Notes: generated by a model not told the origin, from the sequence alone. Shown: positions 8,466-54,512, numbered from the stretch's first letter. The stretch: 64,000 nt of DNA from a bacterium (GCA_028713675.1 JAQTNV010000010.1:12369-76368), one strand, 5' to 3'. Numbers and translations are program-made.

Positions 8466-8490
8466 GCGCAGGCTGAAGCCTGCGGCTACC
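8466..8490 (-). repeat. REP palindrome (GGTAGCCGCAGGCTTCAGCCTGCGC family)
   Basis: The sequence gcgcaggctgaagcctgcggctacc has an 8-bp stem, a 2-nt loop and a terminal CTACC (GTAG on the other strand). Confidence 0.7.
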
Positions 8491-8491
8491 A

Positions 8492-9259
8492 CTATTTCTT
8501 CCGATAGATTTCTTCCGCCAGGCTCCCGATCATCAGCGCGCCCTTGGATGCGGGGTCGAACTCCCAGATCGTCTGGCCGTGGCTCTGGGCCTCATCGATC
8601 TTCACGCTATAGCCGATGACGGTCTTGGCCACCCGCTCCTTGAAATGCTCCTTGAGCTTCCCGTGGATGGCTTCGGCGAGCAGGGTGTTGCGCCAAAAGG
8701 TAGCCACGAACATCGAAATCTGGAGATTGTCAGTAAGCGGGGAGAGGCGCGAGCGCACCAGGTCCACGGTCTCCACGATCTCGGCGCAGCCGTCCAGGGA
8801 AAGGTAGGTCAGCGCCACCGGCACGATCACCTCGTCGCAAGCGACCAGGGCGTTCAGGGTAAAAAGTCCCATGGAGGGAGGTGAATCAATGATCACGTAA
8901 TCGAATCCGCGCAGTTCCTTGAGGCGGTTTCTGAGGAGAAGGTTCCGGTCCGGGAGCGTGGCGGCGGTGATGAAGAAATCCGCGAGGTTCTTGTTGGCGG
9001 CGATGATCTTTAAATTTTCGATCTTGGTCGGGAGGATCGCTTCTTTCAGGGGCAGATCGGGCTTGGTCATGAGCTCGAGAATCGTCACCGGCTGTTCCCG
9101 CACATTTATCCCCAGGGACTTCCCCACCTGTCCTTGCGGGTCCAGGTCAATGAGCAGCACCTGTTTTTTCTTCTTCAGCGCCAGGTAGGAGCCGACATTG
9201 ACGACCAGGGTGGTTTTCCCGGTGCCGCCCTTCTCGTTCACGAAAGCAATCTTGCGCAA
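8492..9259 (-). CDS. ParA/Soj-family ATPase (orphan; no parB in the window)
   Basis: Deviant Walker A motif KIAFVNEKGGTGKTT. Likely TTG start at 9259 with a GGGGG RBS. The ORF track extends to 9304. Confidence 0.8.
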   Translation of the reverse strand: MRKIAFVNEKGGTGKTTLVVNVGSYLALKKKKQVLLIDLDPQGQVGKSLGINVREQPVTILELMTKPDLPLKEAILPTKIENLKIIAANKNLADFFITAATLPDRNLLLRNRLKELRGFDYVIIDSPPSMGLFTLNALVACDEVIVPVALTYLSLDGCAEIVETVDLVRSRLSPLTDNLQISMFVATFWRNTLLAEAIHGKLKEHFKERVAKTVIGYSVKIDEAQSHGQTIWEFDPASKGALMIGSLAEEIYRKK

Positions 9260-9513
9260 CTTAAACAACCCCCTTTTCAGAGTGATGAGACTGATTTTCC
9301 TCAATCTTAAAACAAATCACAAGTATTCAAAAGCTCAAAGGTCAAAGCTGAAAGTTCAAAGGTTAAAGCTCAACGCTCAACGGTTGAAATCTTTATTTCG
9401 GAAGCATAAAGTAAAGATATCCATTCAAGTAAAAAGTAAGAAGTGTTAACCGGAAAAACTAAATAAACCAAAGAAATCAGAAAAACTTATATTCATAAAG
9501 GAAGGAGAAAAAA

Positions 9514-9765
9514 ATGGCGGAGGAAAAAATCGGGGATGTGGAAAAATTCTTCGGCAAGATCTCGGTCGCGATGATCAAGCTCTCGGCCCCTCTCAAGGTG
9601 GGCGACACGATCAAGTTCAAGGGTCACACCACCGATGTCACCCAGACGGTTGACTCGATGCAGATGGCGAACCAAGCCATCCCGGAGGCCAAGGCGGGCG
9701 ACGACGTCGGGCTCAAGACCAAAGACAAGGTCCGGCCCGGGGACACGGTGTATAAAGTAACGTAG
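9514..9765 (+). CDS. Small EF-Tu domain-2-like beta-barrel protein (translation-elongation-factor-like protein, 83 aa)
   Basis: Strong RBS ggaaggag upstream. The GDTIKFKGHTTDVTQTV...GDDVGLK...GDTVY pattern resembles domain 2 of EF-Tu/SelB. Transcribed divergently from parA. Confidence 0.55.
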   Translation: MAEEKIGDVEKFFGKISVAMIKLSAPLKVGDTIKFKGHTTDVTQTVDSMQMANQAIPEAKAGDDVGLKTKDKVRPGDTVYKVT

Positions 9766-9918
9766 ACCGTAGGCGGTAGACGGCATACCGGGGAAAGCCA
9801 GAAGCCCTTTCTCGCGCCTTACGCCTTACCCCTCACGCCTTATGTGTGGTTTCGTTGGGCTTGAGAAAAGAAGCCCCTGCCGATTAAATTTTCTCATATA
9901 ATTCATTCGTTATCATTT

Positions 9919-9983
9919 GTCATTCCTGCGAAAGCAGGAATCCAGGAAAAATATCTGGATCCCGCATCAAGTGCGGGATGACG
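9919..9983. repeat. GAAA-loop hairpin repeat plus an adjacent inverted partner (ctggatcccgcatcaagtgcgggatgacg)
   Basis: The sequence gtcattcctgcgaaagcaggaatccag is followed by a second hairpin that ends in gatgacg. Confidence 0.65.
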
Positions 9984-10002
9984 TAATTGCGGAAAATCGG
10001 TT

Positions 10003-12612
10003 TTGGCTTTAAAGAAAAAATATTTTCTATTTGTCCTCATCCTGGTCTTTTCCGCCTTCTCTTGTGGTGGGGGAAATCAGACCACCGTTGAGCTCGGAAC
10101 CGTCCGGGTGGAAGTCACGAAAAAACCCCCGAAGCTTCGTTTCCTTGATTCCCAGGACCGGCTGATCGCCGAGACCCAGCCGGGAATAATCGAGCTCGCC
10201 CAGGTCGAGGAACAATACAAATGGTTCCAGGGCAATCTCGGCGTAGCCCGAACTACCAAATCCATGATCGACCTTTCGGAAGGATCCCTGAAAATCAAGG
10301 AGGAAGGCGACGTTCTCGAACTAACCCTCTCTGATAATTCCGGACATCAAGTGGCCACCCTTAAACTCCAAAACGGGCCTCGCTATAACACGATCAGTAG
10401 TATCATGCCTTACGGACCAGGGTCACAAGACACACTGAAAATGGAGTTTTCCACCCTGGCCGCGGAAAATCCCTCCACCGATGAAATCAACGAGGTCCAT
10501 TTTCTATTCGTCTGCCAGCCGGGCGAAGGTTTTTACGGTCTTGGGGGTCAGTCCGACAAGTCCGAGCACCGCGGCGAGACTGTCCCCATCCGGTCGACCG
10601 AACAAGGCATCCTGAAGGATGCCGGTCTGCGCGAGGATGATATTTCCCTGGTGGGAAGGGGTCACATTCACGACGCCTACTTCCCCCTGCCTTACGTGGT
10701 GGTGCATAAAACGGACGCGGAACCCCGGACCCATGGCTGGCTCCTGGATACCATTTCCCGAAGCCGTTTCCTGCTTTGCTCAGAGGATCCAGACCGTCTG
10801 GAAATCCAGGCCCGTCTGGCCCGGTTTTTAGGGGAGAGTCTTCTGACGTTATACCCCGCCGCTGATCTCTACCTTCTGCCAGGACCCGATCCCAAGAGTG
10901 TGGTCGGTCAATATACCGCCATCGAGGGACTGCCCCTGCCCCTGCCCCGCTGGGCCTTCGGCCCCTGGGTAGCCATTAAAGGCGAGCCCCTGGACGTGGC
11001 GGCCCAGCTGGAATCTCTACGGACATTCGATATCCCCGCCACCGCCATCTGGGACCAGGACTTCCAGGAATACGATCACCCCGACCTGTCCGTGCTAGTG
11101 GACAGGGCTCACGCTCTCGGCTTCCGACTCCTGACCTATTTCAACACCTTCCTTCATACCGACGTGCCAGCGCACCTGGATGCCATTAATTCCGGCTACT
11201 CGGTCAAAACCGAAGCCGGAGACCCGTACATGTTTCTCCAGGTCTCCCAAGAGAGCTCGCTGGTCGATTTTTCGAACTCAAAAGGGATGGCGTGGATGTT
11301 CGATCACCTGAAGGAAGCCTGGAATCTGGGAATAGACGGCTGGATGGCCGACTACGGGGAATGGGTGGCTCCCGATATGGTCTTTAAAGGTGTAGAAACT
11401 AATTTTCATACCAGCGGGATGGAAAATTATTACTCTTTCTTCTGGGCCGGGATAAACGACGCGGTCCTCCGCGATGCCCATCCGAACGACTCGGGAAATT
11501 ATCTTTTCTTCAGCCGCTCCGGCTACCTGGGCTCCAACCGCTACCTCCGCGTAACCTGGCCTGGAGACCAGGTTACGAGCTTTGACCAGTATGATGGCCT
11601 GCCGAGCGTCATCCCCTATGGGACCAGCCTGGGGCTTTCCGGGGTCAGCGCCTTCGGGCCGGACATCGCCGGCTACACCCCCATCGCCGCCCCGCCTTCC
11701 ACCAAGGAACTATATTTCCGCTGGACCGAGCTAGGCGCCTTCATGCCCGTGATGCGTACCCACCGCGGCTTCGACTACGAGCGTAACTGGAACTGGAACA
11801 AGGACCTCGACACCATCGCCCTTTTCCGGCGCTACGCGCTTTTACACCTGCGGATGGCTCCTTACCTCGAGGCGCTCCACCAGGAGGCAACCGAAACCGG
11901 CATCCCCGCCATCCGCCACCTGATGCTTGAATTCCCCGCCTGGACCGGGGTGGCCGAAAGTCATTATGAATGGATGCTCGGTCCTTCCCTCGTCGTCGCC
12001 CCGGTGATCGAGGCAGGCGCGCTCACCCGGACGCTCCGCCTGCCCCCGGGGACCTGGTATGACCTTTTCACCGGCAAACGCTATGAAGGCGATTCCGAAT
12101 TCACGGTTGACGCCCCGCTGGATTCCATCCCGGTCTTCCTGCGGGCCGGGGGCATCGTGCCCCTCCTCGACGAGCGGGTCCGCGGGGCCGAGCCCGGCCC
12201 GGACGCCCCCGAGCGGATCGCGGCCTCGGATATCGAGGATGAGCGCCTGGAGATCTGGATCGGGAGCTTCAGCGCCTCTGAAGCGATCCCGCCTGAGGCG
12301 GTGAGCGGCTCCGGACAGTTCACGCTTCTGGATGGGACGTCGATCACGCTGGAGGAAGATTCGACCCTTCCCGCCAATTCAGGGATAAATGAGGAAGGGA
12401 CTGTCCTGGCCGTTTGTCCGACCGGGACCGATCCCTGGGATTCGGACTGCTTCCAGGAAACCGACTCGGGTCAAATTTTGGTGGCGGCCCGCACCGGGCC
12501 GGGCGAAATTACCTTCGGCGGGGGATCCACCAATGGAATCGGGGTAAGAATCACCCTTTCGGGCGGCCCCTCTGGAAGGAGATATAAAATCCGGATTTTC
12601 CGGGGAATTTAA
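10003..12612 (+). CDS. Glycoside hydrolase family 31 lipoprotein (alpha-glucosidase / alpha-xylosidase-like)
   Basis: Lipoprotein signal (LVFSAFSCGGG). GH31 catalytic signatures GIDGWMADYGEW and SRSGYLGSNRYLRVTWPGDQVTSFD. Confidence 0.75.
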   Translation: MALKKKYFLFVLILVFSAFSCGGGNQTTVELGTVRVEVTKKPPKLRFLDSQDRLIAETQPGIIELAQVEEQYKWFQGNLGVARTTKSMIDLSEGSLKIKEEGDVLELTLSDNSGHQVATLKLQNGPRYNTISSIMPYGPGSQDTLKMEFSTLAAENPSTDEINEVHFLFVCQPGEGFYGLGGQSDKSEHRGETVPIRSTEQGILKDAGLREDDISLVGRGHIHDAYFPLPYVVVHKTDAEPRTHGWLLDTISRSRFLLCSEDPDRLEIQARLARFLGESLLTLYPAADLYLLPGPDPKSVVGQYTAIEGLPLPLPRWAFGPWVAIKGEPLDVAAQLESLRTFDIPATAIWDQDFQEYDHPDLSVLVDRAHALGFRLLTYFNTFLHTDVPAHLDAINSGYSVKTEAGDPYMFLQVSQESSLVDFSNSKGMAWMFDHLKEAWNLGIDGWMADYGEWVAPDMVFKGVETNFHTSGMENYYSFFWAGINDAVLRDAHPNDSGNYLFFSRSGYLGSNRYLRVTWPGDQVTSFDQYDGLPSVIPYGTSLGLSGVSAFGPDIAGYTPIAAPPSTKELYFRWTELGAFMPVMRTHRGFDYERNWNWNKDLDTIALFRRYALLHLRMAPYLEALHQEATETGIPAIRHLMLEFPAWTGVAESHYEWMLGPSLVVAPVIEAGALTRTLRLPPGTWYDLFTGKRYEGDSEFTVDAPLDSIPVFLRAGGIVPLLDERVRGAEPGPDAPERIAASDIEDERLEIWIGSFSASEAIPPEAVSGSGQFTLLDGTSITLEEDSTLPANSGINEEGTVLAVCPTGTDPWDSDCFQETDSGQILVAARTGPGEITFGGGSTNGIGVRITLSGGPSGRRYKIRIFRGI

Positions 12613-12698
12613 GCCCCGGCGCCACTTCCTTCCAATACCGAATTTATTCACTATTTATTCACTTGCAAACTCTTTCTATTTGTTATATCAAGCCTGTG

Positions 12699-13886
12699 AT
12701 GAATTTGCTGAGGGCCAGTTTTCTGTTCCTGCTCATTTCTCTATCCTTGCTTTCTCCCGCCGTCCTGGCCGAGGAATATAAGAACCCGTTGGATCCGCCC
12801 GCCCGTTCGGATGACCCCGCCTGGGCCGAGGCCCTGTCTTTCTGGGACCAGCGCGCTGATGTCGACAACGCGAAAAAGGCCCTGAATATTTTTATTACCC
12901 TGGCCGCCGGTCATCCCGACCAGGTCGAGCCCGAGCTCTGGCTCTGCCGGGTCTATTACTACCTCGGACTGGAAGAGGGAAGACATAGAAGGCCCGCCCT
13001 CCTGGCCGATTCGGTCGCACACGGGAAAAAGGCCCTGGCCCTCCGGCCGGGAAACTTTTACGCCCTCTACTGGACGGTCGGCGCCTACTACCACTTTGAT
13101 AACCTGAAGGAAATTCCCCCCGAGGTTAAGGAGCTGGCAGCCAAGCTTCCCCGGGGGCAGCGCGAGATTGCCGTCCCCGCCGGCAACCCGGAATGGAAAA
13201 AGGCCCTGGCCCTCTGGGACGCACGCGCAGATCGGGAAAAGGCCTGGCAGGCCGCTGAATTCTTCTGGAAGCTGACCAAAGATAACCCCCAATCCCTGGA
13301 GGCCCGGCTCTGGCTTACCCGCGTCTATTACTGGCTCGGACGGACCGGGAAAACCCCGGAAGAACGCAAAAAGATTTATTACCAGGGTTATAAATACGGC
13401 CTGGAGGCGGTAAAACTGAGCCCCCGGAACCCCGCCGCCAATTACTGGACCATGTGCCACCTGGCCCGTTACGGTGAGCTGGGTTCATTCATGAAGAAAG
13501 CCTCTCTCGCCTTAGACATTATCAACCTCATCCACCTGGTCGACCTGGAAGACCCGATTTATTTTTTCAGCGGCATTCCCAGCGTGCTCATCTGGTCCCT
13601 GGCCGATACCCATGAGCTCACCCGCAAACTCGTCCCCACTATCCTCGGCATCCCGGCCGACATGCGGCAAACGCTGAGAATGGCGTTTATCCTGGAACCG
13701 AATTACTTTGACGTCAGGGTGGGATTCGTGAAATGGTATATCTCGATCAAGGATTACCAAAATGCCCGGGAAGAGATCAATTACATTATTAAAACCCCGG
13801 CCCGCTCCCTCCCCGGCTACGAGGCGGAAAATATTTTAAGCCAGGACATCGCCCGGGACCTGCTCGAGCAGATCAAGGATAAATAA
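12699..13886 (+). CDS. Secreted protein with two internally duplicated TPR-like domains
   Basis: Signal peptide MNLLRASFLFLLISLSLLSPAVLA. Two homologous segments of about 120 aa (WAEALSFWDQRADVDNAKKAL... and WKKALALWDARADREKAWQAA...). Confidence 0.6.
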   Translation: MNLLRASFLFLLISLSLLSPAVLAEEYKNPLDPPARSDDPAWAEALSFWDQRADVDNAKKALNIFITLAAGHPDQVEPELWLCRVYYYLGLEEGRHRRPALLADSVAHGKKALALRPGNFYALYWTVGAYYHFDNLKEIPPEVKELAAKLPRGQREIAVPAGNPEWKKALALWDARADREKAWQAAEFFWKLTKDNPQSLEARLWLTRVYYWLGRTGKTPEERKKIYYQGYKYGLEAVKLSPRNPAANYWTMCHLARYGELGSFMKKASLALDIINLIHLVDLEDPIYFFSGIPSVLIWSLADTHELTRKLVPTILGIPADMRQTLRMAFILEPNYFDVRVGFVKWYISIKDYQNAREEINYIIKTPARSLPGYEAENILSQDIARDLLEQIKDK

Positions 13887-13894
13887 TCATTGAT

Positions 13895-14080
13895 AAGGTG
13901 ATAGGTGTTGGGTCATGGGTCATAGGTAAAATCAAAACCTAAAACCCAACACCCAAAACCTAATACCTAAAAATAAAAAACCCGAGGTTCCCCGGGTTTT
14001 AAGCTTCTTAACTTTTGGTTTTTCGCCTCTTGCTTCTTGCCTTTTGCCTATAACCTATGACCTATCACCTATGACCTATG
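13895..14080. repeat. Inverted pair of TAGGT-unit heptamer repeats (gtgataggtgttgggtcatgggtcataggt ... acctatgacctatcacctatgacctatgacc) flanking a terminator
   Basis: A related motif (gggtgataggtgttgggtgctgggt) occurs at 1392-1418. Confidence 0.6.
13971..14003. terminator. Bidirectional intrinsic terminator between the convergent 12699..13886 gene and mutS2
   Basis: Hairpin aaaaaacccgaggttccccgggtttt, with an A-run and a T-run on either side. Confidence 0.6.
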
Positions 14081-14082
14081 AC

Positions 14083-16467: not shown

Positions 16468-16539
16468 CCTGATAATTTCCCCTTGGTTTAACCCGAACTT
16501 ATATTAATATAAAAGAGTCCTTATAATAAGCGCACGCAA

Positions 16540-17274: not shown

Positions 17275-17507
17275 GTTAATATGAGGAAATATAAGTAGTT
17301 AGAACCTATCGGATAACTTGCGGGAAAAGACAAATTGGGACTTGAACAGGAAAACCTCCGGAATGACCCCCTCTCCCCCACCCTCCCCCTTCCCGCCTCT
17401 GGCGGGACAAGCCGAGGGGGGCCTGCCCGAGCCGGCCGCTCGGGTCGGCCAGGGAGGGAAAGGGTGAGGGTGAAAATAATTATCTGAACAGTTATGATTA
17501 AAACGCC

Positions 17508-24340: not shown

Positions 24341-24574
24341 ATCATAAATAATCCTCCCCTCCCTGGAGGGGAGGGGACTGAGGGGAGGGTGAACGATGCG
24401 TTTTCTCACCCTCTCCTTCATCCTCCCCCCTCAAGGGGGAGGAAAAATTTACAAATAAAAATACGACAAAGGACGGACAAGACGAGAAAAAAAGGCGGGG
24501 ATAAACCCCGCCCCTACAAAAACAATTTATTTAATAACGTAGGGGAGCCCCTGGTGGGCTCCCTCAATTTAATA

Positions 24575-24631
24575 CGCAGGCTTCCCTCGGCCATAATGCC
24601 TCGGGATCTGATCGAAAAGCCTGCGTCTACC
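24575..24631 (-). repeat. Long-loop REP variant (57 nt), copy 1 of 3
   Basis: The reverse complement matches the copies at 49887-49943 and 53719-53775 (GGTAGMCGCAGGCTTTTCGATCAGATCCCGAGGYATTRTGRYCGAGGGAAGCCTGCG). Outer stem GCAGGCTT/AAGCCTGC and inner stem TCGATCA/TGATCGA. Confidence 0.75.
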
Positions 24632-27559: not shown

Positions 27560-27587
27560 CTGGATTCCTGCTTCCGCAGGAATGACG
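27560..27587. repeat. GAAA-loop hairpin repeat family (ctggattcctgcttccgcaggaatgacg)
   Basis: Located in the nrdJ-gcvH intergenic region. Generates the spurious peptide FWIPASAGMT in shadow ORF 27363..27623. Confidence 0.65.
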
Positions 27588-29519: not shown

Positions 29520-29689
29520 AACATCAAACTGAAGTTGGTAGGTTCACCGTTCCCATTCGCAGGGCTCAGGGCAAGCAAGGTTCAAAGGTTGAATACGGAA
29601 AAATCCAAAGGCAAAGTCCGGAAACACCTTAACCTTGAACTCTGGACTTTGAACCCTGAACCTGGATACCTACAAAGTAGAAGTAAGAA

Positions 29690-32107: not shown

Positions 32108-32206
32108 ACGGGTCCCGAAAATGATTGTCAATATATGTTAAGATGAAAAAGAGGAAGCATTATGACTGAAGAAAACCAGAAAGATAAAGTAAAAAAGGAG
32201 GGTGGG

Positions 32207-33109
32207 ATGAATTTGTTCCAAAAGAGAATGTTTGGATCTCTTTTAGTTACCCTGGGAGTCGCGGCGCTGGTAATCCTCTCCGCCTGCGCCAAGCCCCCGA
32301 TCAAGGAAATCGCCACCGCCGAAGCGGCCCTGGAAAAGGCGCGCACGGCCGAGGCCCCCACCTACGCCCCGGAAACTTTCAAGAGCGCCGAGGACATCCT
32401 CGCCCAGGCCAAGACCGAGATGCAGAAAAAGAAATACAAACCGGCCAAGAAAGACGCCATCAACGCCCGGCTCCTGGCCGAGCGGGCCCTGGATGAGGCC
32501 GTCAAGAACAAGGCCGCCCAGGAGGCCGTACAGCCCAAAGCCCCCGGTCTGACCGAGGAGGAAAAAGCCGCCGGCCCCACTGTCCAGCCGCAGGAAATCT
32601 CGGTGGCCGAGCTCCAGAAACAGCAGACCGGGACCGGCTCCCTGGATGAAGGAATGAAGATTTCGTCCCTGGAAGCTGTCCATTTCAATTTCGACGATTT
32701 CAGCCTCTCTGAAGAAGCCCGCCAGACCCTGGCCAAGAACGCGGAATGGTTGAAAAAATACAATGTCGTGATCCAGATCGAAGGCCACTGCGACGAGCGC
32801 GGCGCCAACGAATACAACCTCGCCCTGGGCGAGAAAAGGGCCAAGACCGCCCGCGATTACCTGGTGGCTCTCGGCATTGACGCTTCCCGGCTGACGATCA
32901 TCAGTTACGGGGAAGAAATCCCGGTCGACCCCGGCAGCAGCGAAGCCGCCTGGGCCAAGAACCGGCGGGCCGAATTCATTGTCACAAAAATGAACGACAA
33001 GCAGCCGGAGACCGGTGTCAAACAGCCGGAAACCGGCATCAAGCAGCCGGAGGCCGGGATTACACAGCCGGAAACCGGCATTAAGCAGCCGGAAACCGGC
33101 AGCAAGTAG
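32207..33109 (+). CDS. pal: Peptidoglycan-associated lipoprotein Pal (OmpA-like domain) with five C-terminal KQPETGI heptapeptide repeats
   Basis: Lipobox LVILSAC. OmpA-like core (NVVIQIEGHCDERGANEYNLALGEKRAKTARDYL). RBS aaggaggg before the ATG at 32207. Tandem 21-bp repeat at 32995-33100. Confidence 0.85.
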   Translation: MNLFQKRMFGSLLVTLGVAALVILSACAKPPIKEIATAEAALEKARTAEAPTYAPETFKSAEDILAQAKTEMQKKKYKPAKKDAINARLLAERALDEAVKNKAAQEAVQPKAPGLTEEEKAAGPTVQPQEISVAELQKQQTGTGSLDEGMKISSLEAVHFNFDDFSLSEEARQTLAKNAEWLKKYNVVIQIEGHCDERGANEYNLALGEKRAKTARDYLVALGIDASRLTIISYGEEIPVDPGSSEAAWAKNRRAEFIVTKMNDKQPETGVKQPETGIKQPEAGITQPETGIKQPETGSK

Positions 33110-33115
33110 AAAGAA

Positions 33116-33152
33116 ACCAGTTTCTAGTTTCGAGTTTCGGGTTTCGAGTTTG
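33116..33152 (+). repeat. Stop-codon-adjacent GTTTCGA-heptamer element (3' of pal)
   Basis: The sequence ccagtttctagtttcgagtttcgggtttcgagtttg begins 7 nt after the pal TAG. Confidence 0.65.
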
Positions 33153-33271
33153 AAATTCTCGGAATTTTTTACGGAATGTCATTTCTGCGAACATGTCCGA
33201 CGACCTGTCCTCCGAAGCCTTGGCGTAGGAGGGAGCCTTGGCGAAGTCGGAAGCAGGAATCCAGGGGTTTT

Positions 33272-34138: not shown

Positions 34139-34309
34139 GGTAGGTGGTAGGTAGCAGGTGGTAGGTGGTAGGTGGTAGGTGGTAGGTGGTAGGTGGTAGG
34201 TGATAGGTGGTAGGTAGTAGGTAGTAGGTAGTAGGTAGTAGGTAGTAGGTAGTAGGTAGTAGGTAGTAGGTAGTAGGTAGTAGGTAGTAGGTAGTAGGTA
34301 GTAGGTAGT
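34139..34309. repeat. Long tandem heptanucleotide array (GGTAGGT / AGTAGGT, about 24 units)
   Basis: About 170 bp of perfect 7-nt periodicity immediately after cpoB, bordering the AT-rich islet. Confidence 0.9.
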
Positions 34310-34356
34310 AGACCCCCGGAAACCGATTTAACTCTTTTTTAAAATTCCATTTAAAT

Positions 34357-34920: not shown

Positions 34921-34971
34921 GGGGGAATCCAGTATTTTTTCCGCCTGGATTCCTGCTTCCGCAGGAATGAC
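34921..34971. repeat. GAAA-loop hairpin repeat, extended form
   Basis: The sequence gggggaatccagtattttttccgcctggattcctgcttccgcaggaatgac flanks the AT-rich islet. Confidence 0.7.
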
Positions 34972-36489: not shown

Positions 36490-36645
36490 AGTTCAAAGTC
36501 CAAAGGTCAAAGGTCAAAGTTCGAAGGAAAGATATAAAACAGCATCAGCAAGCTGATGCGCTCCAAAAAAGAAAACCCTGAATTCCGGCTTCCTCCTGCG
36601 CCGAGGCTTCGGAGGACAAGTCCGCCGGAATGACGATATTTATTT

Positions 36646-36716: not shown

Positions 36717-36741
36717 GCGCAGCCTAAAGGCTGCGGCTACC
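36717..36741 (-). repeat. REP palindrome with compensatory stem changes
   Basis: The sequence gcgcagcctaaaggctgcggctacc has the same architecture and CTACC end as the other copies. The stem is GCAGCCT/AGGCTGC rather than CAGGCT/AGCCTG. Confidence 0.6.
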
Positions 36742-36806: not shown

Positions 36807-36920
36807 GCGCCTTGCGCTCTGCTTTTCGCAAGGCTAAAGCCTTGCCCTACATTTGCCCTATGCCCTTTGCGATCACAAATCAGGTTTTCACTCGTCAATC
36901 GTAAATCGTCAATCGTCAAT

Positions 36921-37909: not shown

Positions 37910-37980
37910 CTGGATTCCCGCTTTCGCGGGAATGACGGAATTAGCATGGATACTCCCGCCTTGGGCGGTACGGGAATGAC
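37910..37980. repeat. GAAA-loop hairpin repeat (ctggattcccgctttcgcgggaatgacgg) followed by a second gggaatgac end
   Basis: Lies between mtnP and ndk. Generates the spurious peptide WIPAFAGMT at the C-terminus of shadow ORF 36630..37979. Confidence 0.65.
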
Positions 37981-44766: not shown

Positions 44767-44769
44767 TGT

Positions 44770-46482: not shown

Positions 46483-46598
46483 TCAACCCCCAAATTTCTA
46501 TTTTCGAATTTCGAAATCCTATACCCTACCCCCTCTCCCTTCCTTCCCCCTCGACAGGGGAGGGCTTGGGTGGGGGTGAATTCGTTTATTTGTTTTCC

Positions 46599-47389: not shown

Positions 47390-47411
47390 AGTCTTACCTC
47401 TCTTCGTATTA

Positions 47412-47446
47412 TTGATAGCCGGTTATCGGTAACCGGCGACCGGTTA
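47412..47446 (-). repeat. Intercistronic ACCGGTT-unit element (abutting the fumB stop, before sdhC)
   Basis: Sequence agccggttatcggtaaccggcgaccggttac. Confidence 0.6.
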
Positions 47447-48001: not shown

Positions 48002-48040
48002 TTTTCTTCCGTTTTAAAGTCTTCTGGCCTTCGAGCTTCT

Positions 48041-48892
48041 TTAAATGACCGCCTCTTTATGCCGGTGCGAATGGCAATTGATGTTGATCGCCACCGGGAG
48101 GCTCGCGATGTGGCAATTCGTCATTTCGATATGCACCGCCAGGGCGGTGGTCCGTCCTCCCAGCCCGGCCGGCCCGATCCCCAGGCGGTTCACCTTTTCC
48201 AGGATCTCCTGTTCCAGGTTGGCCAGCTCGAGACTCGGGTTGGGGTTGCCGAGCGGCCGCAGGAGCGACCGCTTGGCCAGGATGGCCGACTGTTCCAGGT
48301 TGCCGCCGATCCCGACCCCGACGACAATCGGGGGACATGGATTGGAGCCGGATTCCCGGACCCGGTCCACCACCAGTTTCTTCACGCCTTCCACCCCGGC
48401 CGCCGGGGGCAGGAGCTGCACCCGGCTCATGTTCTCGCTGCCTCCCCCCTTGGGGGCGCAGACGATATGGATCTTTTCTCCCGGAACGATCCGGACATGC
48501 AGGATGCAAGGGGTATTATCCCCGGTATTCTTCCGGGTGAAGCAATCGCAGACCGACTTGCGGAGAAAGCCCTCCTTGTAAGCCTGCCGCACGCCCTCGT
48601 TGACCGCCTCTTCCAAACTTCCCCCCACCAGGTGCACGTCCTGGCCCAGGTCGATGAAAACGACCGCGAGGCCGCAATCCTGGCATAGCGGGTAGACTCC
48701 CTCCCGGGCAATCTTGGCGTTCTCGATGATTTCATCCAGGATCGCCACCCCGATGGGGGACTCTTCCGCTTTCCGGGCCCGGTCCAGGGCCTCGATCACA
48801 TCCTCGCCCAGGTTGTAGCAGGCCGATTGGAAAAGCTCCCGGAGCTTCGCAGTTATTTCTTTTACTTGGATTTCTCTCATTTTGTTCGTCAC
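48041..48892 (-). CDS. fumA: Class I (Fe-S) fumarate hydratase, alpha subunit (N-terminal domain)
   Basis: Fe-S hydro-lyase alpha motifs (CQDCGLAVVF, ...CHSHRH). GTG start at 48892. Confidence 0.85.
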   Translation of the reverse strand: MTNKMREIQVKEITAKLRELFQSACYNLGEDVIEALDRARKAEESPIGVAILDEIIENAKIAREGVYPLCQDCGLAVVFIDLGQDVHLVGGSLEEAVNEGVRQAYKEGFLRKSVCDCFTRKNTGDNTPCILHVRIVPGEKIHIVCAPKGGGSENMSRVQLLPPAAGVEGVKKLVVDRVRESGSNPCPPIVVGVGIGGNLEQSAILAKRSLLRPLGNPNPSLELANLEQEILEKVNRLGIGPAGLGGRTTALAVHIEMTNCHIASLPVAININCHSHRHKEAVI

Positions 48893-48919
48893 CGGTTTCC
48901 GGTTACCGGCTACCGGTTA
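48893..48919 (-). repeat. Intercistronic ACCGGTT-unit element that fills the entire mdh-stop to fumA-start spacer
   Basis: Sequence cggtttccggttaccggctaccggtta. Confidence 0.6.
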
Positions 48920-49858
48920 CTAGAATCCTTTGCCTTTCATCTCCTGGACGGTTTTCTTGACCGAATCCAGCGACTTCTGGAAGGCCGCCTTTTCCTCTGC
49001 GTTGAGGTCGATCTCCACCACCTTCTGCACGCCCGTGGCGCCGAGAACGGCGGGAACGCCCATGAAATAACCGCCGACGCCGTATTCCTTCTCGCACCAG
49101 ACCGAGCAGGGCATGACGCGCCGCTGGTCATTGAGGATGGCCTCGGCCATCGTCACCGTGGCGCTCCCGGGGGAGAAGTAGGCGCTCCCGGTTTTGAGCA
49201 AAGCCACGATCTCGCCCCCGGCCTTCCGGGTCCGGTCAACCATGGCCGCAAGCCGGTCCTTCGGGATCAGGTTTTCCACCGGCACTCCGTTCACCTGGGT
49301 CCGCCGGACGAGCGGGACCATGTCGTCGCCGTGACCGCCGAGCACCAGGGTCTGCACGTCGCGCGGGCTGACCTTGAGCTCCATCGCGATGAAACAGGCG
49401 AAGCGAGCCGAGTCGAGCACCCCGGCCGAGCCGATCACGCGGTTCTTGGGGAAGCCGGTGACCGAGGCGGTCAGGTAAACCATCGAATCCAGCGGGTTCG
49501 AAACCACCAGGACAATCGAATTGGGGGCGAATTTCTTGATCGCCTCCGCGACCGGTTTCACGATCTTGATGTTGGCGTCGAGCAGGTCCTCCCGGGTCAT
49601 CCCCGGCTTCCGGGCCATCCCGGCGGTGACGATGACCAGGTCGGACCCGGCGATATCGTCATACTTGGTCGTGCCCATGATATCCACATCGATCCCCGAG
49701 AACGAGCGGCATTCCATCAGGTCGAGGGCCTTGCCCTGCGGCATCCCCTCCACGATATCGGTGATGACCACATCACCCAGGTTCTTGACCGCCGCCACAT
49801 GGGCGCAGGTCTGCCCCACGTTCCCGCCGCCGATTACCGCAATTTTCTTTCTAGCCAT
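48920..49858 (-). CDS. mdh: Malate dehydrogenase (LDH-like MDH)
   Basis: Motifs KIAVIGGGNVGQT, VSNPLD and GGHGDDMVP. Confidence 0.9.
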   Translation of the reverse strand: MARKKIAVIGGGNVGQTCAHVAAVKNLGDVVITDIVEGMPQGKALDLMECRSFSGIDVDIMGTTKYDDIAGSDLVIVTAGMARKPGMTREDLLDANIKIVKPVAEAIKKFAPNSIVLVVSNPLDSMVYLTASVTGFPKNRVIGSAGVLDSARFACFIAMELKVSPRDVQTLVLGGHGDDMVPLVRRTQVNGVPVENLIPKDRLAAMVDRTRKAGGEIVALLKTGSAYFSPGSATVTMAEAILNDQRRVMPCSVWCEKEYGVGGYFMGVPAVLGATGVQKVVEIDLNAEEKAAFQKSLDSVKKTVQEMKGKGF

Positions 49859-49886
49859 GTTTACCTCGCTTTTTTTAACCGTTATG

Positions 49887-49943
49887 GGTAGCCGCAGGCT
49901 TTTCGATCAGATCCCGAGGCATTGTGATCGAGGGAAGCCTGCG
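49887..49943 (+). repeat. Long-loop REP variant, copy 2 of 3 (between the porin-like gene and mdh)
   Basis: Near-identical to 53719-53775. Confidence 0.75.
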
Positions 49944-49966
49944 TTTCTCCGCATCTCCATCCGAAT

Positions 49967-51121
49967 TTAGAACGCCACCTGGGCCTGGGTATAGAGCGTA
50001 AAAAGGTTCTCCGGGTCCTTCAGGTCTTCAACGGCATTGAGGGAAAGCATGGCGTTCGTGCCGATAATGTAATAATTAACCCCTCCGGTCAGCCGGATGA
50101 TTTCGTCATTATCCCCATCCAGGTTCGGCTCATAGTACTCGACGCGCACCATGGGTTCAACCTTCGGCACCACCTTGTAACCCGCTTGCCCATAGACAGC
50201 AATGCCGTTGATGTTATCAGGATCGTTCTCATCCATCGCGTAGAGGATCTCGGCCAGGGCGGTCAGATTGCTGACCGTTGCCCGGAGGAAAGCCCCGGCC
50301 CGGAAACCCGTAAGATAATCGCTGGTTCCGGTCACGCCCGTCCTCCCGATAGTCGCATATACCGCCGTTTCGATCTTGTCATTAGGTTTAACATTGAGCC
50401 GGACGAGGAAATCCTTCCAGTTATCCGCGTCCTTCCAGGTGTTCTGGCAATTTTGGGAAACGCTATTGTAAATCCCGACGTTCAGGCTGGAAATCCCGAG
50501 CTTGGTGGTGCTCTGAATTCCGACCTGGCGCCACATCGCATACTTGGAGGTCAACAGCGGATAACTGACAAAATCAAGCTTGGAAACCAGCTGGGGCTGG
50601 TAGTAAGTGAAATTCGGGAGGAACCGCCCGACCTGGATTTCGGTTTGGGGAAGAGCATTGACGAAAATTAACCGGGCATCCAGAAGCCAGGGGACCACGG
50701 TACCACTACCCCCCTGAACTGCATCACCCTGGAATACATATTTGACCTTGTCGGGCAGAATGCTCCCCATCAGGAATATCCGGGCCCGGCTCATATTGAA
50801 CGAATTATTCAGCTCGGTATCGTAACCAACCGTATCATCTCCAACCTGGGTTTGGGCAAGAGTGAAATATGCCTGCAGAATAGCGGAGATCTTCATGTCC
50901 CCGATCCCTACCATCACTCCGCTTCCTTTCGGCGGTTCCGGGGCGGGAGCCGGCTGGACAACGGGAGCGGGTTCCGGTGCAGGAGCGGGTTCCGGTGCCG
51001 GCTGGACTGCGGGAGCGGGTTCCGGTGCCGTCTTTCCTTTTCCCGCCGCGCCGGCCGATAACGGCAATGAAATAACCAAAGCCAATGTCAGCAGACTGAC
51101 AATTCCGAATAACCTTTTCAT
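49967..51121 (-). CDS. Putative outer-membrane beta-barrel porin with a Pro/Ala-rich (PEPAPA) linker
   Basis: GGAGGA RBS and ATG at 51121. Signal peptide MKRLFGIVSLLTLALVISLPLSAGAA. Repeats PEPAPAVQPAPEPAPAPEPAP. Alternating beta pattern ending ...TQAQVAF with a terminal Phe. Confidence 0.55.
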   Translation of the reverse strand: MKRLFGIVSLLTLALVISLPLSAGAAGKGKTAPEPAPAVQPAPEPAPAPEPAPVVQPAPAPEPPKGSGVMVGIGDMKISAILQAYFTLAQTQVGDDTVGYDTELNNSFNMSRARIFLMGSILPDKVKYVFQGDAVQGGSGTVVPWLLDARLIFVNALPQTEIQVGRFLPNFTYYQPQLVSKLDFVSYPLLTSKYAMWRQVGIQSTTKLGISSLNVGIYNSVSQNCQNTWKDADNWKDFLVRLNVKPNDKIETAVYATIGRTGVTGTSDYLTGFRAGAFLRATVSNLTALAEILYAMDENDPDNINGIAVYGQAGYKVVPKVEPMVRVEYYEPNLDGDNDEIIRLTGGVNYYIIGTNAMLSLNAVEDLKDPENLFTLYTQAQVAF

Positions 51122-51278
51122 CGTCTCCTCCCTTTCTCTGTTTCCGATAAAATTTAACATTTATTACTTGTCCAATCGCTTTTCACCCGCCAGCTTCACT
51201 GCTAGGGATGACCAGCCGGGATTATCTTTATTAGATTTAAAATGGGATGTCAAGAGATGTATACAACAAGCGGTCGTT

Positions 51279-52292
51279 TTAGCAGATTCGGGGGAATTGT
51301 TCGCCGCTCAGCGGTTCCAGAATCCGGTGACCCCCGATCCGGGTCTGGAGAAGAACCCGGCCCGGGTTTTCCCCGGATACCTGGCCGATTATTACCGCAT
51401 CTTTCCCCAGGGGATGAGATCTCATCCGTAAAACCAGCCTGTCCGCCGCCCCTTCCGGGCAGATCGCGATCAATTTGCCTTCATTGGCCAGAAAATAAGG
51501 ATCGAAGCCCAGGAGTTCGCAAACCCCCCTGACCTCGCTTTTGACCGGGATGAGCTCTTCCCGCGCCACCATCCCCACCCCCGAAGCGTTGGCAATCTCC
51601 CAGAGGACCGTGGCCATTCCTCCCCGGGTGGGATCACGCAGGGAATGGAGCTCCGGGACCGTTTCGAGCATCATCTCCACCAGCCCGTTCAGGGGGGCGC
51701 AGTCGCTTTTTACCTCACCCTTGATGGAAAACTCCCCCCGGGCGATCAAAACCGCCACCTCGTGTTCGCCGATAAAGCCGCTGAGAATGATCCGGTCCCC
51801 CGGCCGGGCTTTCCGGCTCTGGATCTCCACCCCTTCCGGGACTATCCCCACCCCGGCGGTGGTAATGAACAATCCCTCCGCCGCCCCTTTCTCCACCACC
51901 TTGGTATCACCGGTCACGATCTTGACCTGCGCCTCCCGGGCGGCTTCCTGCATGGATTGAAGAATCTTTTCCAGGGTTTCCTCCGGAAAACCTTCCTCGA
52001 TAATAAAAGCGGCCGAAAGGCCGAGCGGCTTCGCCCCCGCCATGGCCAGGTCGTTGACCGTGCCGCAGATCGCCAGGCGGCCGATATCCCCGCCCGGAAA
52101 AAACAGGGGTTTGACCACGAAGGAATCGGTGGTGAAAGCCAGACGGCCGGCCTTTTCGCTGGAAAAAACCGCGCTGTCGTCCATCTGGCGGAGAAGATCA
52201 TTATCAAAGTAAGGGAGAAAAAGCCGGTGAACCAAATCGTGGGAGAGTTTTCCCCCCGCCCCGTGGGCTAAAAGTATTTTTTTTGTTTTCAT
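51279..52292 (-). CDS. hypE: [NiFe]-hydrogenase maturation protein HypE
   Basis: AIR-synthase-like fold motifs, with a C-terminal ...PRIC typical of HypE. Confidence 0.85.
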   Translation of the reverse strand: MKTKKILLAHGAGGKLSHDLVHRLFLPYFDNDLLRQMDDSAVFSSEKAGRLAFTTDSFVVKPLFFPGGDIGRLAICGTVNDLAMAGAKPLGLSAAFIIEEGFPEETLEKILQSMQEAAREAQVKIVTGDTKVVEKGAAEGLFITTAGVGIVPEGVEIQSRKARPGDRIILSGFIGEHEVAVLIARGEFSIKGEVKSDCAPLNGLVEMMLETVPELHSLRDPTRGGMATVLWEIANASGVGMVAREELIPVKSEVRGVCELLGFDPYFLANEGKLIAICPEGAADRLVLRMRSHPLGKDAVIIGQVSGENPGRVLLQTRIGGHRILEPLSGEQFPRIC

Positions 52293-52295
52293 ATA

Positions 52296-52372
52296 TGAGA
52301 TTCAGGGTTTAAGGCTCAAGACTCAAAGTTCAAAGAGAGTCATTTTACCTTTGAGCTTTGACCTTTCACCTG
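52296..52372. repeat. CAAAGGTCAAAG / CTTTGACCTTTG imperfect inverted repeat; other copies lie at 9330-9395, 29570-29665 and 36485-36530
   Basis: AAGGTCA-type heptamer units in direct and inverted arrangement, lying in 5' regions of hypE, parA/9514, tolA and gatB. Confidence 0.55.
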
Positions 52373-53458
52373 CTTTGCCATTAGCTCCCTTCCATATTTA
52401 TAATAAGCGGCGCAGGTCCCTTCGGAGGAAACCATGCAGGGTCCCACCGGCAGGTCAGGGGTGCAGGCCCGGGAAAAAAGCGCGCATTCGGGGGGGCGGA
52501 TCAGGCCCTGGAGAACTTCCCCGCACCGGCATCCGGGCGGTTCTCCCGGGTCGGGCAGTTCAAGCGGAAACACCCGGGCCGCGTCCCGCCCGGAGAGCTC
52601 TTCCCGGAGAAAAAGGCCGCTGTCCGGGATTTCTCCCAGGCCCCTCCAGAGAGCCGGGGCGGGCCGGAACATCTCCTCCATCACCTTGAGAGCCAGGACA
52701 TTCCCTTCCGGTTTTACCACCCGCCGATACTGGATCTCGATGGCCGCCCGTTTTTCCCGGACCTGCCGGGCCAGCATTTCAATCCCTTCCAGGATATCGA
52801 GGGGATCGAACCCGGTGATGACCCCGGGGATGCCGTATTCCCGGGCGATGAACTCATAGGGATGGCTGCCGATGATCACGCTCACATGCCCGGGAAGGAT
52901 GAACCCGTCGATTCTGGTTTTCTTCCCGGAAAGAAGCGCCCGGATCGCCGGGGGAACCAGGCGCTGGGATGAATAGATGAAAAAGTTTTTCAGTTCCAGG
53001 CGCCCGGCTTCCCGGACCGCGAAAGCGGTAGCCGGAGAGGTGGTCTCGAAACCGACCGCGAAAAAAATCACCCGCTTTCCGGGATTATCCTGGGCGAGCC
53101 TGACTGCATCCAGGGGAGAAAGCACCACCCGGATGTCGCCGCCTTCCGATTTTTCCTCGTAAAGGGAGGAGTCCGAACCGGGAACCCGGAGCAGGTCCCC
53201 GAAAGTCGCCAGGATGGTGTTTTCCATCCGGCTGTAGACAATGGCGCGGTCAATCTCCTTCTGCGGGGTGATGCAGACCGGGCAGCCCGGCCCGGAAATC
53301 AGCTCAATTTTCGCGGGGAGAAGCGATTTTATCCCGGTGCGGAAGATGGCGATGGTGTGGGTCCCGCAAACCTCCATGAGCCGCAGGGGCCGGTCCGACA
53401 GAAGAGCGATCTTCTCCAGCCGGCTCCGGGCTTCTCCGGCTTCATCCAGCTTTTTCAT
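52340..53458 (-). CDS. hypD: [NiFe]-hydrogenase maturation protein HypD
   Basis: Motifs MEVCGTHT, GPGCPVC and FETT, plus the C-terminal CPVGPCMVSSEGTCAAYY Fe-S motif. Confidence 0.9.
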   Translation of the reverse strand: MKKLDEAGEARSRLEKIALLSDRPLRLMEVCGTHTIAIFRTGIKSLLPAKIELISGPGCPVCITPQKEIDRAIVYSRMENTILATFGDLLRVPGSDSSLYEEKSEGGDIRVVLSPLDAVRLAQDNPGKRVIFFAVGFETTSPATAFAVREAGRLELKNFFIYSSQRLVPPAIRALLSGKKTRIDGFILPGHVSVIIGSHPYEFIAREYGIPGVITGFDPLDILEGIEMLARQVREKRAAIEIQYRRVVKPEGNVLALKVMEEMFRPAPALWRGLGEIPDSGLFLREELSGRDAARVFPLELPDPGEPPGCRCGEVLQGLIRPPECALFSRACTPDLPVGPCMVSSEGTCAAYYKYGRELMAKQVKGQSSKVK

Positions 53459-53675
53459 CGGGTCCGAGAACCAGTTTCAGAACTTCCCGGGTTTCCAGGG
53501 CGTCTTTCTCGTCCATTTTCTGGATGGCGAAGCCCACGTGGACGAGCACATAATCACCCACCCGGGCGTCCGGGCAGAGGGCAAGGCTGACTTTTTTATT
53601 CACCCCGCCGAAATCAATCTCGGCGACCTGGTCTTCCTCGATCGAGATTATTTTTCCCGGAATTCCAAGACACAT
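53442..53675 (-). CDS. hypC: [NiFe]-hydrogenase maturation chaperone HypC/HupF
   Basis: N-terminal MCLGIPGKII signature. 77 aa. Overlaps hypD. Confidence 0.85.
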   Translation of the reverse strand: MCLGIPGKIISIEEDQVAEIDFGGVNKKVSLALCPDARVGDYVLVHVGFAIQKMDEKDALETREVLKLVLGPDEKAG

Positions 53676-53718
53676 TTTAAATCAACTCCAGTTATTCATA
53701 ATATATTTCCTTACCACT

Positions 53719-53775
53719 GGTAGCCGCAGGCTTTTCGATCAGATCCCGAGGTATTGTGGCCGAGGGAAGCCTGCG
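53719..53775 (+). repeat. Long-loop REP variant, copy 3 of 3 (3' flank of the RAYT)
   Basis: Sequence ggtagccgcaggcttttcgatcagatcccgaggtattgtggccgagggaagcctgcg. Confidence 0.75.
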
Positions 53776-53782
53776 TACATTT

Positions 53783-54253
53783 TCACCATTCTTCCAAATT
53801 ATAAACGGTCGATCCCTTAAAAGGATACCCCTTACTATCCGCCGCCAAACCCTTTCGAACAGGATTATTTAAGATGTATTTTACCTGCTTGAGAATATCT
53901 TCATCTTTTCTTAGGACATGATCATAAAAATCTTTTTGCCATTTAATGCCGGGATGATTTCGCCCCAACCAGTAACCGGTTTTTTGCTTGAAGTTTTTGA
54001 TAAATTTTAATAGATCAGATTCATCGGACTTACCCTCCACTAAAACATGAAAATGATCCGGCATAAAAAGAAAAACATGGGCTTCGCATTCTTCTTTCTT
54101 TAAAATATTGATTAACAGGTCAGAGAAAATCCGAGTAATATTTTCCTGAGCAAATAGAGGATACCTCTCTGCAATACAAACCGTAAAAGTAATTATTATT
54201 TTTCCTCGATATAACTTCGTTGATAAACGGTGTCTGCGTTCTCGGATTTCCAT
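53783..54253 (-). CDS. REP-associated tyrosine transposase (RAYT; IS200/IS605-like Y1 HuH transposase)
   Basis: 156 aa. HuH motif FMPDHFHVLV. Catalytic Tyr / NP motif KYILNNPVRKGL. N-terminal YRGKIIITFTV. Flanked on both sides by GTAG-type REP palindromes. Confidence 0.8.
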   Translation of the reverse strand: MEIRERRHRLSTKLYRGKIIITFTVCIAERYPLFAQENITRIFSDLLINILKKEECEAHVFLFMPDHFHVLVEGKSDESDLLKFIKNFKQKTGYWLGRNHPGIKWQKDFYDHVLRKDEDILKQVKYILNNPVRKGLAADSKGYPFKGSTVYNLEEW

Positions 54254-54261
54254 TCAAAACC

Positions 54262-54512
54262 CGCAACCTGCCTGTCCTGAGCTTGTCGAAGGGAAGGTTG
54301 CGCCTACCAAACATTCAAAATCTTATTCTTGTATCGGTAGCCACAGGCTTCAGCCTGCGCAATTCCGCAACCTAAAGGTTGCGCCTACCAAACATTCAAA
54401 ATCTTATTCTTGTATCGGTAGCCGCATGCTTCAGCCTGCGCTATTCCGCAACCTAAAGGTTGCGCCTACCAGAATGTAATTATTTTTACGCAGGCTAAAG
54501 CCTGCAGCTACC
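54262..54512. repeat. BIME-like cluster of six REPs in alternating orientation, including an approximately 84-bp direct duplication
   Basis: REPs at 54262-54308 (-, long loop), 54336-54360 (+), 54365-54389 (-, stem GCAACCT/AGGTTGC), 54417-54441 (+), 54446-54470 (-) and 54488-54512 (-). Each has a GGTAG or CTACC terminus. Confidence 0.75.

Follow-up and report, generated by a model that had tools for sequence, protein, structure and literature searches.

A stretch of 64,000 nucleotides (nt) from an uncultivated bacterium (GCA_028713675.1 JAQTNV010000010.1:12369-76368; hereafter the window, in whose numbering positions are given) very probably carries a REPtron, that is, a single gene for a REP-associated tyrosine transposase (RAYT, or TnpA_REP) and a cognate family of GTAG-tagged repetitive extragenic palindromes (REPs). 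The RAYT gene lies at 53783-54253 on the minus strand and is flanked by REPs on both sides: a long-loop REP (below) ends 8 nt from its stop codon, and an array of REPs at 54262-54512 begins 9 nt from its start codon. In total the window contains 12 copies of the family motif and two further GTAG-tagged hairpins with unrelated stems, all of which are intergenic and about half of which are clustered at the RAYT gene. The original prediction, which was made from the sequence without database searches, had called these repeats REPs, and rightly so; the seven short elements, each a hairpin followed by CTACC, that it had listed are all present at positions correct to within 1 nt, with the three stem versions that it quoted. 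It had overlooked the RAYT gene, which is the decisive feature, as well as the 81-bp tandem unit, the AC long-loop elements, a diverged short REP and the two hairpins with unrelated stems (below).

The RAYT gene, its flanking REPs and rival identities

The RAYT open reading frame (ORF) encodes 156 amino acids (aa) that include FMPDHFHVLV, WQKDFYDH and YILNNPVRKG; the HuH motif is thus DHFH, followed by WQKDFYDH, and the tyrosine motif is YILNNP, of the Y...NP type. The curated NCBIfam equivalog NF047646 (REP_Tyr_transpos) gives 90.8 bits for this protein against a cutoff of 80, Pfam Y1_Tnp matches it at 8.7e-11, and E. coli TnpA_REP (PDB 4ER8) matches it at 2.7e-6 with the HuH and tyrosine motifs aligned. 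The protein thus has three features of a RAYT (HuH motif, Y...NP tyrosine motif and match to the curated model), and its gene has the flanking cognate REPs by which a REPtron is recognised. It is 100% identical to NCBI MDD5223312.1, which is annotated "MAG: transposase [bacterium]" (MAG, metagenome-assembled genome). The gene is present once in the window. Together with its REP arrays it interrupts a hydrogenase maturation cluster (52340-56797, all on the minus strand) between hypF and hypC/hypD, and an ortholog occupies the same position in a relative, locus L149 (below).

In each short REP a stem of 7 bp encloses a T[AG]AA tetraloop and is followed by one variable base and then CTACC (GTAG on the other strand). 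The sequence CGCANNCTRAAGNNTGCGNCTACC, with up to three mismatches allowed, matches the window seven times, at 8467(+), 36718(+), 54336(-), 54366(+), 54417(-), 54447(+) and 54489(+), compared with 0.02 matches in shuffled sequences. Their stems are CGCAGGC/GCCTGCG, CGCAGCC/GGCTGCG or CGCAACC/GGTTGCG (the GG, GC and AC flavours, respectively), and when folded as single-stranded DNA the short copies have energies of -6.4 to -8.9 kcal/mol, as is appropriate for the short palindrome of a GTAG REP. The unpaired tag is also present throughout, as NCTACC after every short copy and as GGTAG[CA] before every long copy, and it is found as well on REPs at RAYT flanks that were located without fixing the stem sequence. 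A stem-agnostic search of this kind, for a perfect hairpin followed by CTAC, found 7 sites in the window, where shuffled sequences gave a mean of 0.57.

The array upstream of the RAYT gene consists, in order, of a long-loop AC REP (54262-54308, plus strand; CGCAACC-27 nt-GGTTGCG-CCTACC), a 27-nt spacer, two dimers of a GG REP on the minus strand with an AC REP on the plus strand, and a final GG REP. The first dimer is made of a GG REP with one G.T in its stem (54336-54359, minus strand) and an AC REP (54366-54389, plus strand), and the second of a GG REP with one stem mismatch (A/T against G; 54417-54440, minus strand) and an AC REP (54447-54470, plus strand); in both the GTAG tags point outward and the halves are 6 nt apart. 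The final GG REP (54489-54512, plus strand) has a degenerate 3' base (..GCCTGCA-GCTACC) and lies 24 nt from the hypF stop codon. Tandem-repeat analysis finds an 81-bp unit repeated 2.2 times with 96% identity at 54294-54471, and tandem amplification of this unit produced both dimers.

Could the gene instead be an ordinary IS200/IS605 insertion sequence transposase, with the hairpins as its subterminal ends and solo remnants? The two groups share a catalytic fold (Y1_Tnp), and hairpins do lie beside the gene, but we consider this extremely unlikely and did not accept the assignment: the IS200 equivalog NF033573 gives only 26.9 bits (cutoff 55) for a protein that passes the RAYT model, the tyrosine motif is Y...NP (class 2) and not Y...Q, the one copy in 64 kb lies at a conserved hypF-hypC/D locus where a relative with 91% identity has its ortholog, and the hairpins are dispersed on their own and bear GTAG tags. 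A second alternative concerns what the hairpins are for, since the original prediction had named either RAYT recognition or RNA structure as the reason for their selection. Two observations strongly favour recognition by the RAYT: the region that the repeats span contains a RAYT gene with repeats on both its sides, and at ten other loci the same REP borders homologous RAYTs (below). That the hairpins are conserved mainly as RNA elements (3' untranslated region stabilisers, terminators or processing sites), the RAYT being incidental and the stem covariation a product of selection on the folded RNA, seems quite unlikely to us. In its favour, the spacers that hold the window copies are all convergent or unidirectional, the copies are often 1-30 nt from a stop codon, and Di Nocera et al. 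propose that many REPs are transcribed and act as RNA elements. However, with respect to transcription the copies are found in either orientation (compare 36718 and 49887) and also as inverted dimers, no T-run follows them, and searches of the whole window with Rfam at gathering thresholds and with ARAGORN gave no matches. Stem mismatches that would be G.U pairs number 18 on the strand that reads from hairpin to CTAC and 28 on the opposite strand, so that there is no strand-specific wobble signature and no enrichment of G.T over A.C on either strand. An RNA role would also leave unexplained the tight linkage of REP sequence to RAYT clade across phyla. The results fit a hairpin that is read by the RAYT on single-stranded DNA, and a secondary role in RNA is compatible with REP biology.

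Stem covariation and the long-loop variant

The original prediction had described the stem differences among the window copies as preserving base pairs, and had tied that claim to pairing being retained once more copies were aligned; a covariation analysis of a wider alignment upholds it. We scanned 185,579 species genomes with a pattern that fixes 19 of the 24 REP positions and leaves stem pairs 5 and 6 free, and found matches at 119 or more loci. Among the matches listed, 151 of 162 exact-pattern copies pair at both free positions, and they do so with eight complementary types: GG/CC (87 copies), AC/GT (28), AG/CT (16), GA/TC (9), CC/GG (4), AA/TT (2), GT/AC (1) and GC/GC (1). A larger set, also drawn from the matches listed and allowing up to three mismatches anywhere, has 259 copies from 122 loci and 109 distinct sequences. 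In these 109 sequences 91.5% of the stem cells are paired (78.7% when shuffled), double changes affect five of the seven stem pairs (3.1 when shuffled), and the covariation score is 0.337, compared with 0.111 in shuffled alignments (none of 500 reached the observed value) and at most 0.110 when the partner position is slid. Fully Watson-Crick stems of 14 different kinds occur among the 259 copies, and 218 of the copies are fully paired in spite of the mismatches allowed. The compensatory stem changes are real.

Complementarity of the stems could arise as a mechanical by-product, either of template switching or mismatch correction within the hairpin or of the amplification of a few variant founders, and we regard such an explanation, taken by itself, as unlikely. 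Founder amplification would let one double change account for many sequences, and only about 14 distinct Watson-Crick stems lie behind the 259 copies. Against this, the central pairs vary and the same few positions at the base of the stem and in the loop do not, few stems are broken (218 of 259 are fully paired, above), and in the related group 3 system of Stenotrophomonas maltophilia a mismatch in the middle of the stem lowers cleavage or abolishes it, which is a direct selective reason for pairing. Cleavage in that system is also impaired by mutations of GTAG and requires one particular loop base (PMC8266576). The by-product and selection explanations can act together.

Three elements of 57 nt, at 24575-24631 (minus strand, between convergent sufS-like and nrdJ genes), 49887-49943 (plus strand, between a 397-aa ORF and mdh) and 53719-53775 (plus strand, the copy next to the RAYT stop codon), are GG REPs in which a conserved insert of 37-39 nt replaces the tetraloop. 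They differ from their consensus by 0-2 nt, where no such copies are expected by chance, and all have a 9-bp outer stem, CGCAGGCTT/AAGCCTGCG. The positions, the outer stem and the intergenic placement close to gene ends that the original prediction gave for these elements stand for all three, but its description of a three-copy variant does not, since a metagenome scan in which the outer stem and two inner anchors were fixed found at least 21 further contigs that carry it. The flanks of these contigs are unrelated to the window, and the long-loop variant is therefore a dispersed subfamily. Its 19 distinct sequences are highly similar, most columns being at least 90% identical, and the GGTAGC foot is kept in most copies. 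At orthologous positions of the array a long GG REP can stand in one genome and a short one in the other (below), and we therefore read the variant as a loop-expanded REP; given those shared positions in an orthologous REPtron, it is most likely processed in the same way as a short GG REP.

No inner structure of the long loop was accepted. The inner stem TCGATCA/TGATCGA of the original prediction is perfect in the copy at 49887 only, whereas those at 24575 and 53719 read TGGCCGA, which creates an A.C mismatch and a G.T pair; among the 19 distinct copies its central A-T pair is broken in 10, it has no double changes and shuffled sequences score as well. RNAalifold proposes a consensus fold with the outer stem, an 11-nt bulge and CCC-GA-GGC/GCC-GA-GGG, and this inner structure likewise has no double substitutions among the 19 copies. 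A resemblance of the long loops to a hammerhead motif (CUGA...GAAA) was dropped, since the core does not fit and Rfam gave no match. These results also bear on whether the 57-nt element is a separate functional unit, such as a small RNA with its own structure or a binding site for a protein, that has no more than its outer stem in common with the REPs. Its well conserved insert and its recurrence in unrelated metagenomic surroundings are what one would expect of such a unit, yet neither candidate inner structure shows a double substitution and Rfam is silent, the foot is retained in most copies, the element occupies REP positions in REPtron arrays and pairs with AC REPs in dimers, and variation in loop length is normal in GTAG REP families; we hold a separate unit to be very unlikely.

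The remaining members of the family are less regular. A degenerate long-loop AC element (29537-29593, minus strand; ..CCTGAGCCCTGCGAATGGGAAC-GGTGAA-CCTACC) in the exbD-tonB spacer is a degenerate copy of the one at 54262-54308. The insert that these two share (..GTCCTGAGCTTGTCGAAGGGA..) recurs in opposite orientation in the exbD-tonB spacer of a relative (L148, ~5900-5960), with a similar beginning in locus L091, and it may itself be a small palindromic module in its own right that sits within the loop of the REP. Away from the RAYT gene, the short GG REP CGCAGGC-TGAA-GCCTGCG-GCTACC (8467-8490, plus strand) ends 1 nt past the stop codon of a parA-like gene, between convergent genes, and the GC REP CGCAGCC-TAAA-GGCTGCG-GCTACC (36718-36741, plus strand) lies between the MTAP and gatB genes. 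The stem-agnostic search added a diverged short REP, C-GCAAGGC-TAAA-GCCTTGC-C-CTACA (36827-36851, plus strand), and the two tagged hairpins with unrelated stems, GGCGGGG-ATAAA-CCCCGCC-C-CTACA (24494-24518, plus strand) and GTAG-GGGAGCCC-CTGGT-GGGCTCCC (24539-24563, minus strand), which together make a dimer with its GTAG tags inward. The first of these two is possibly another REP flavour; its ATAAA loop is also seen in RAYT-flanking REPs of two distant loci (L120 and L123, below). The genes next to REPs, besides hypF-hypC/D, are thus parA-like, sufS-like/nrdJ, MTAP/gatB, mdh and exbD/tonB, and the spacers are always convergent or unidirectional.

Turnover among relatives and occurrence across phyla

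Close relatives of the window were reached in two ways. GatB homologues led to two syntenic contigs, L146 (~86% nt identity over 24.7-46.8 kb of the window) and L148, and a member of the RAYT cluster led to L149 (~91% nt identity over 45.0-54.4 kb), which has its RAYT gene at the same position. The RAYT proteins of the window and L149 are 96% identical, and a dN/dS of ~0.22, calculated from 15 substitutions, indicates that the gene is under purifying selection. The REPs around it differ: downstream of the RAYT gene the single long-loop REP of the window corresponds to three short GG and two short AC REPs in L149, and in the upstream array it is L149 that has a long-loop GG REP and the window that has short ones. 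In the spacer upstream of mdh an AC short REP partners the long-loop REP in L149, while the window keeps only the last bases of the former, TGCGGAGAAA. L149 also has a 57-nt REP dimer between sdhC and sdhD and a ~200-nt long-loop dimer after hypE, neither of which is present in the window. In L146 the window element at 24575 is absent from the 340 nt downstream of nrdJ, and the one at 29537 is absent as well, the exbD and tonB genes of L146 abutting with no spacer between them; L146 carries at 12888-12941 a REP dimer that has no window counterpart. No REP is found in the L146 counterpart of the spacer that contains the 36718 element, but that counterpart is short and not alignable. The presence of different REPs at orthologous spacers of such near relatives (86-91% nt identity) indicates recent turnover. 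In L149 a REP at 688-711 overlaps the 3' end of the RAYT ORF and alters the C-terminus of the protein (..NLDEIKWMFAG, compared with ..NLEEW in the window).

Several considerations weigh against the picture drawn so far. Presence in one relative and absence in another could reflect deletion as well as insertion, and the difference upstream of mdh looks like a deletion in the window. Conservation of the 19 fixed positions among the scan matches exists by construction, because the pattern fixes them, so that the unbiased test of covariation is that of pairs 5 and 6 only; the set with up to three mismatches is biased towards the consensus, and its cell counts overstate the number of independent events because the copies are related by amplification. 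The REP census of the source genome, finally, is that of the 64-kb window.

Dimers are the prevailing arrangement of neighbouring REPs. Over all loci, 107 adjacent pairs comprise 65 with tags outward, 20 with tags inward and 22 in tandem, and the partners are heterotypic in 53 of the 65 tags-outward dimers, AC with GG being the commonest combination (22 cases). Such GG/AC dimers (CGCAGGC with CGCAACC) occur in the window, L120 and L149, and versions with 6-bp stems (CGCAGG and CGCAAC) in L121. Heterotypic partners would let each REP fold alone instead of forming one long perfect palindrome.

The record titles of the scan matches bear more than 20 phylum-level labels among the matches listed, including Ignavibacteria, Bacteroidota, Nitrospirota, Thermodesulfobacteriota/Deltaproteobacteria, Planctomycetota, Omnitrophota, Acidobacteriota, Clostridia, Chlorobiaceae, Zixibacteria, WOR-3, Elusimicrobiota, Verrucomicrobiae and others; we estimate that roughly ten chance matches are to be expected (18.5 specified bases and ~1.2e12 positions scanned). 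Homologues of the window RAYT at 45-60% identity number in the hundreds and span the same lineages together with Candidatus Uhrbacteria and Candidatus Roseilinea. The labelled hosts include Candidatus Uhrbacteria (candidate phyla radiation), Chloroflexota, Nitrospirota, Planctomycetota, Omnitrophota and Thermodesulfobacteriota. The nearest named homologues of the window's own GatB are ~60% identical and are themselves spread over Deltaproteobacteria, Nitrospirota, Deferribacteres and Nitrospinota.

REPs flank the homologous RAYT genes at L120, L121/122, L123, L124, L036, L049, L058 and L106 (39-57% identity to the window RAYT) and at L149 (96%). We scanned L120 (Deltaproteobacteria), L121/122 (Uhrbacteria), L123 (Roseilinea) and L124 with the hairpin plus CTAC finder, in which the stem is not fixed, and CGCA-NN-C...G-NN-TGCG-N-CTAC elements were found on both sides of each RAYT gene, in two flavours and opposite orientation. 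From the other direction, six loci of the pattern scan have a RAYT homologue, and four of these (L036, L049, L058 and L106) have pattern-matched REPs on both sides of it. Locus L124 is labelled "Candidatus Pacearchaeota archaeon" (GCA_038891475.1, JAWAEI010000021.1), but we rejected an archaeal occurrence: the RAYT of this contig, which the same REPs flank, has 86% identity to a protein of a WOR-3 bacterium, so that the contig is probably a mis-binned bacterial one. A cluster of Cas12a (Cpf1), Cas4 and Cas1 genes lies ~4 kb from the homologous REPtron of L120 (14118-19428), which is probably coincidental.

Pairwise identities among these RAYTs are 46-57% and star-like, while at least 19 of the 24 REP bases, the 19 being those that the scan pattern fixes, are unchanged. 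We tentatively suggest, at somewhat less than even odds, that one REP/RAYT lineage keeps an almost invariant 24-nt REP and a two-flavour tags-outward dimer (CGCAGGC/CGCAACC) in more than 20 labelled phyla. Such a lineage could have two possible origins: the REPtron may move between hosts horizontally as one unit, in contrast to the strictly vertical inheritance described for group 2 and group 3 RAYTs, or the REP may be exceptionally old and held constant by its enzyme; the star-like identities favour neither.

Relation to known REP systems and significance

In kind, the window family is of a type already described. Alternative complementary stems, loop-length variants and tags-outward (HH) dimers are general properties of GTAG REPs, long-loop variation is known in the GTAG-3, GTAG-14 and GTAG-15 families, tags-outward dimers prevail in most GTAG families, and the usual place of REPs is downstream of coding regions (Di Nocera et al. 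2013, PMC3733652). Because its compensatory stem sub-families, long-loop variants and dimers have all been described before, the family is ordinary and the finding modest in kind; less expected is that nearly one and the same 24-base hairpin, with its enzyme, occurs in bacteria labelled with more than 20 phyla. The window family shares with GTAG REPs and REPtrons (Nunvar 2010; Ton-Hoang 2012; PMC3733652) a hairpin that is short, GC-rich and ends in GTAG, extragenic occurrence (in several copies within the 64 kb) mostly in convergent or unidirectional spacers, sub-families with complementary stems, varying loop lengths, tags-outward dimers and clusters, and a REP-flanked RAYT gene; it differs in its stem and loop sequence, CGCA-NN-C / T[AG]AA, and in its uncultivated host. 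A literature search matched none of the versions of the REP core, and the sequence was not found in those parts of the text and supplements of the 24-family GTAG catalogue (PMC3733652) that we examined.

In several features the window RAYT resembles the subclass 2.5 TnpA_REPs (Bertels group 3, which include the S. maltophilia REPtron Sm; PMC6006769, PMC8266576), with which it shares a length of ~150 aa, DH[LF]H, WQ and D in place of E100. The RAYTs of this subclass are accompanied by short, perfectly palindromic REPs in which 1-2 nt separate GTAG from the stem and foot plus stem measure 10-13 nt (PMC6006769), and the window REPs agree, with a foot plus stem of 12 nt. However, the window tyrosine motif is YILNNP where the published consensus, to which it was compared in place of reference sequences, is YI[VI]ANP, and subclass 2.5 is reported mostly from xanthomonads and pseudomonads, while the window clade occurs in MAGs labelled with more than 20 phyla. 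Given the different tyrosine motif and a taxonomic range far wider than reported, we treat the window RAYT as no more than a candidate member of this subclass. In arrangement the array resembles the bacterial interspersed mosaic elements (BIMEs) of E. coli, which alternate Y and Z2 REPs (PMC6006769): REPs of two flavours take turns, oppositely oriented and with spacers that are conserved, there is tandem amplification (of an 81-bp unit here), and a RAYT gene is adjacent. The sequences are unrelated, however, and E. coli REPs are longer, bulged and imperfect palindromes served by a subclass 2.2 enzyme. As with REPINs (Bertels and Rainey 2011), the inverted dimer is an apparent unit of gain and loss (the 57-nt sdhC-sdhD dimer is in L149 only), but the partners here are mostly heterotypic (53 of 65), so that no single long perfect hairpin is formed, and singlets and long-loop singlets are common.

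By analogy with the TnpA_REPs of E. coli, S. maltophilia and Marinomonas (PDB 4ER8, PMC8266576), the HuH/Tyr enzyme of the window would bind a REP that is folded as single-stranded DNA, with sequence-specific reading of GTAG, of the loop and of the foot of the stem and with the remaining stem read by shape, and would cleave and rejoin DNA beside the REP, so that copies of REPs or dimers could enter further intergenic sites. Pairs 5 and 6, in mid-stem, would then have to pair but be otherwise free, hence the compensatory flavours GG/CC, AC/GT, GC/GC and others.

Other repeats share the intergenic spacers of the window. A second, unrelated hairpin family, GGATTCCYGC-NNNN-GCRGGAATGAC, has six copies, at 26-50(+), 6701-6725(-), 9919-9943(-), 27562-27586(+), 34947-34971(+) and 37912-37936(+), against 0.05 expected, and is also present in L148 (~2530-2620); it has no GTAG tag, its stem has a compensatory C-G/T-A switch of its own, and presumably it resembles the dRS3-type ATTCCC...GGGAAT repeats of Neisseria. 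A third palindromic repeat, TCCTCCGAAGCCTYGGCGYAGGAGG, has two copies, at 33208-33232(+) and 36592-36616(-), where none is expected, and occurs in L148 as well (~2740). Tandem arrays with a 7-nt period lie in many spacers (at 1578, 9330, 9815, 13934, 14047, 33119, 34140-34311, 36485, 36647, 36765, 36888, 37993 and 48891), their unit differing from site to site and the largest being GTAGGTA repeated 24.6 times at 34140-34311; similar arrays are found in spacers of L146 and L148, and we take them to be reminiscent of the heptameric short tandemly repeated repetitive (STRR) sequences of cyanobacteria. A 21-nt (seven-codon) unit is repeated 5.2 times at 32998-33118, at the 3' end of the ORF 32162-33109; the corresponding region of L146 differs and has a REP dimer nearby.

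The analysis turns a set of unexplained repeats into a system that can be annotated, namely a RAYT gene that had been labelled only as a transposase, its REPs, and recent gain and loss of REPs around central-metabolism and hydrogenase-maturation operons. Its compact substrate, a 7-bp stem with a tetraloop and GTAG of which compensatory and long-loop variants occur naturally, is convenient for tests of which parts of a REP a group-3-like RAYT reads by sequence and which by shape. Since one REP is found in many phyla, the system is also relevant to the question of whether inheritance of REP-RAYT systems is vertical only.

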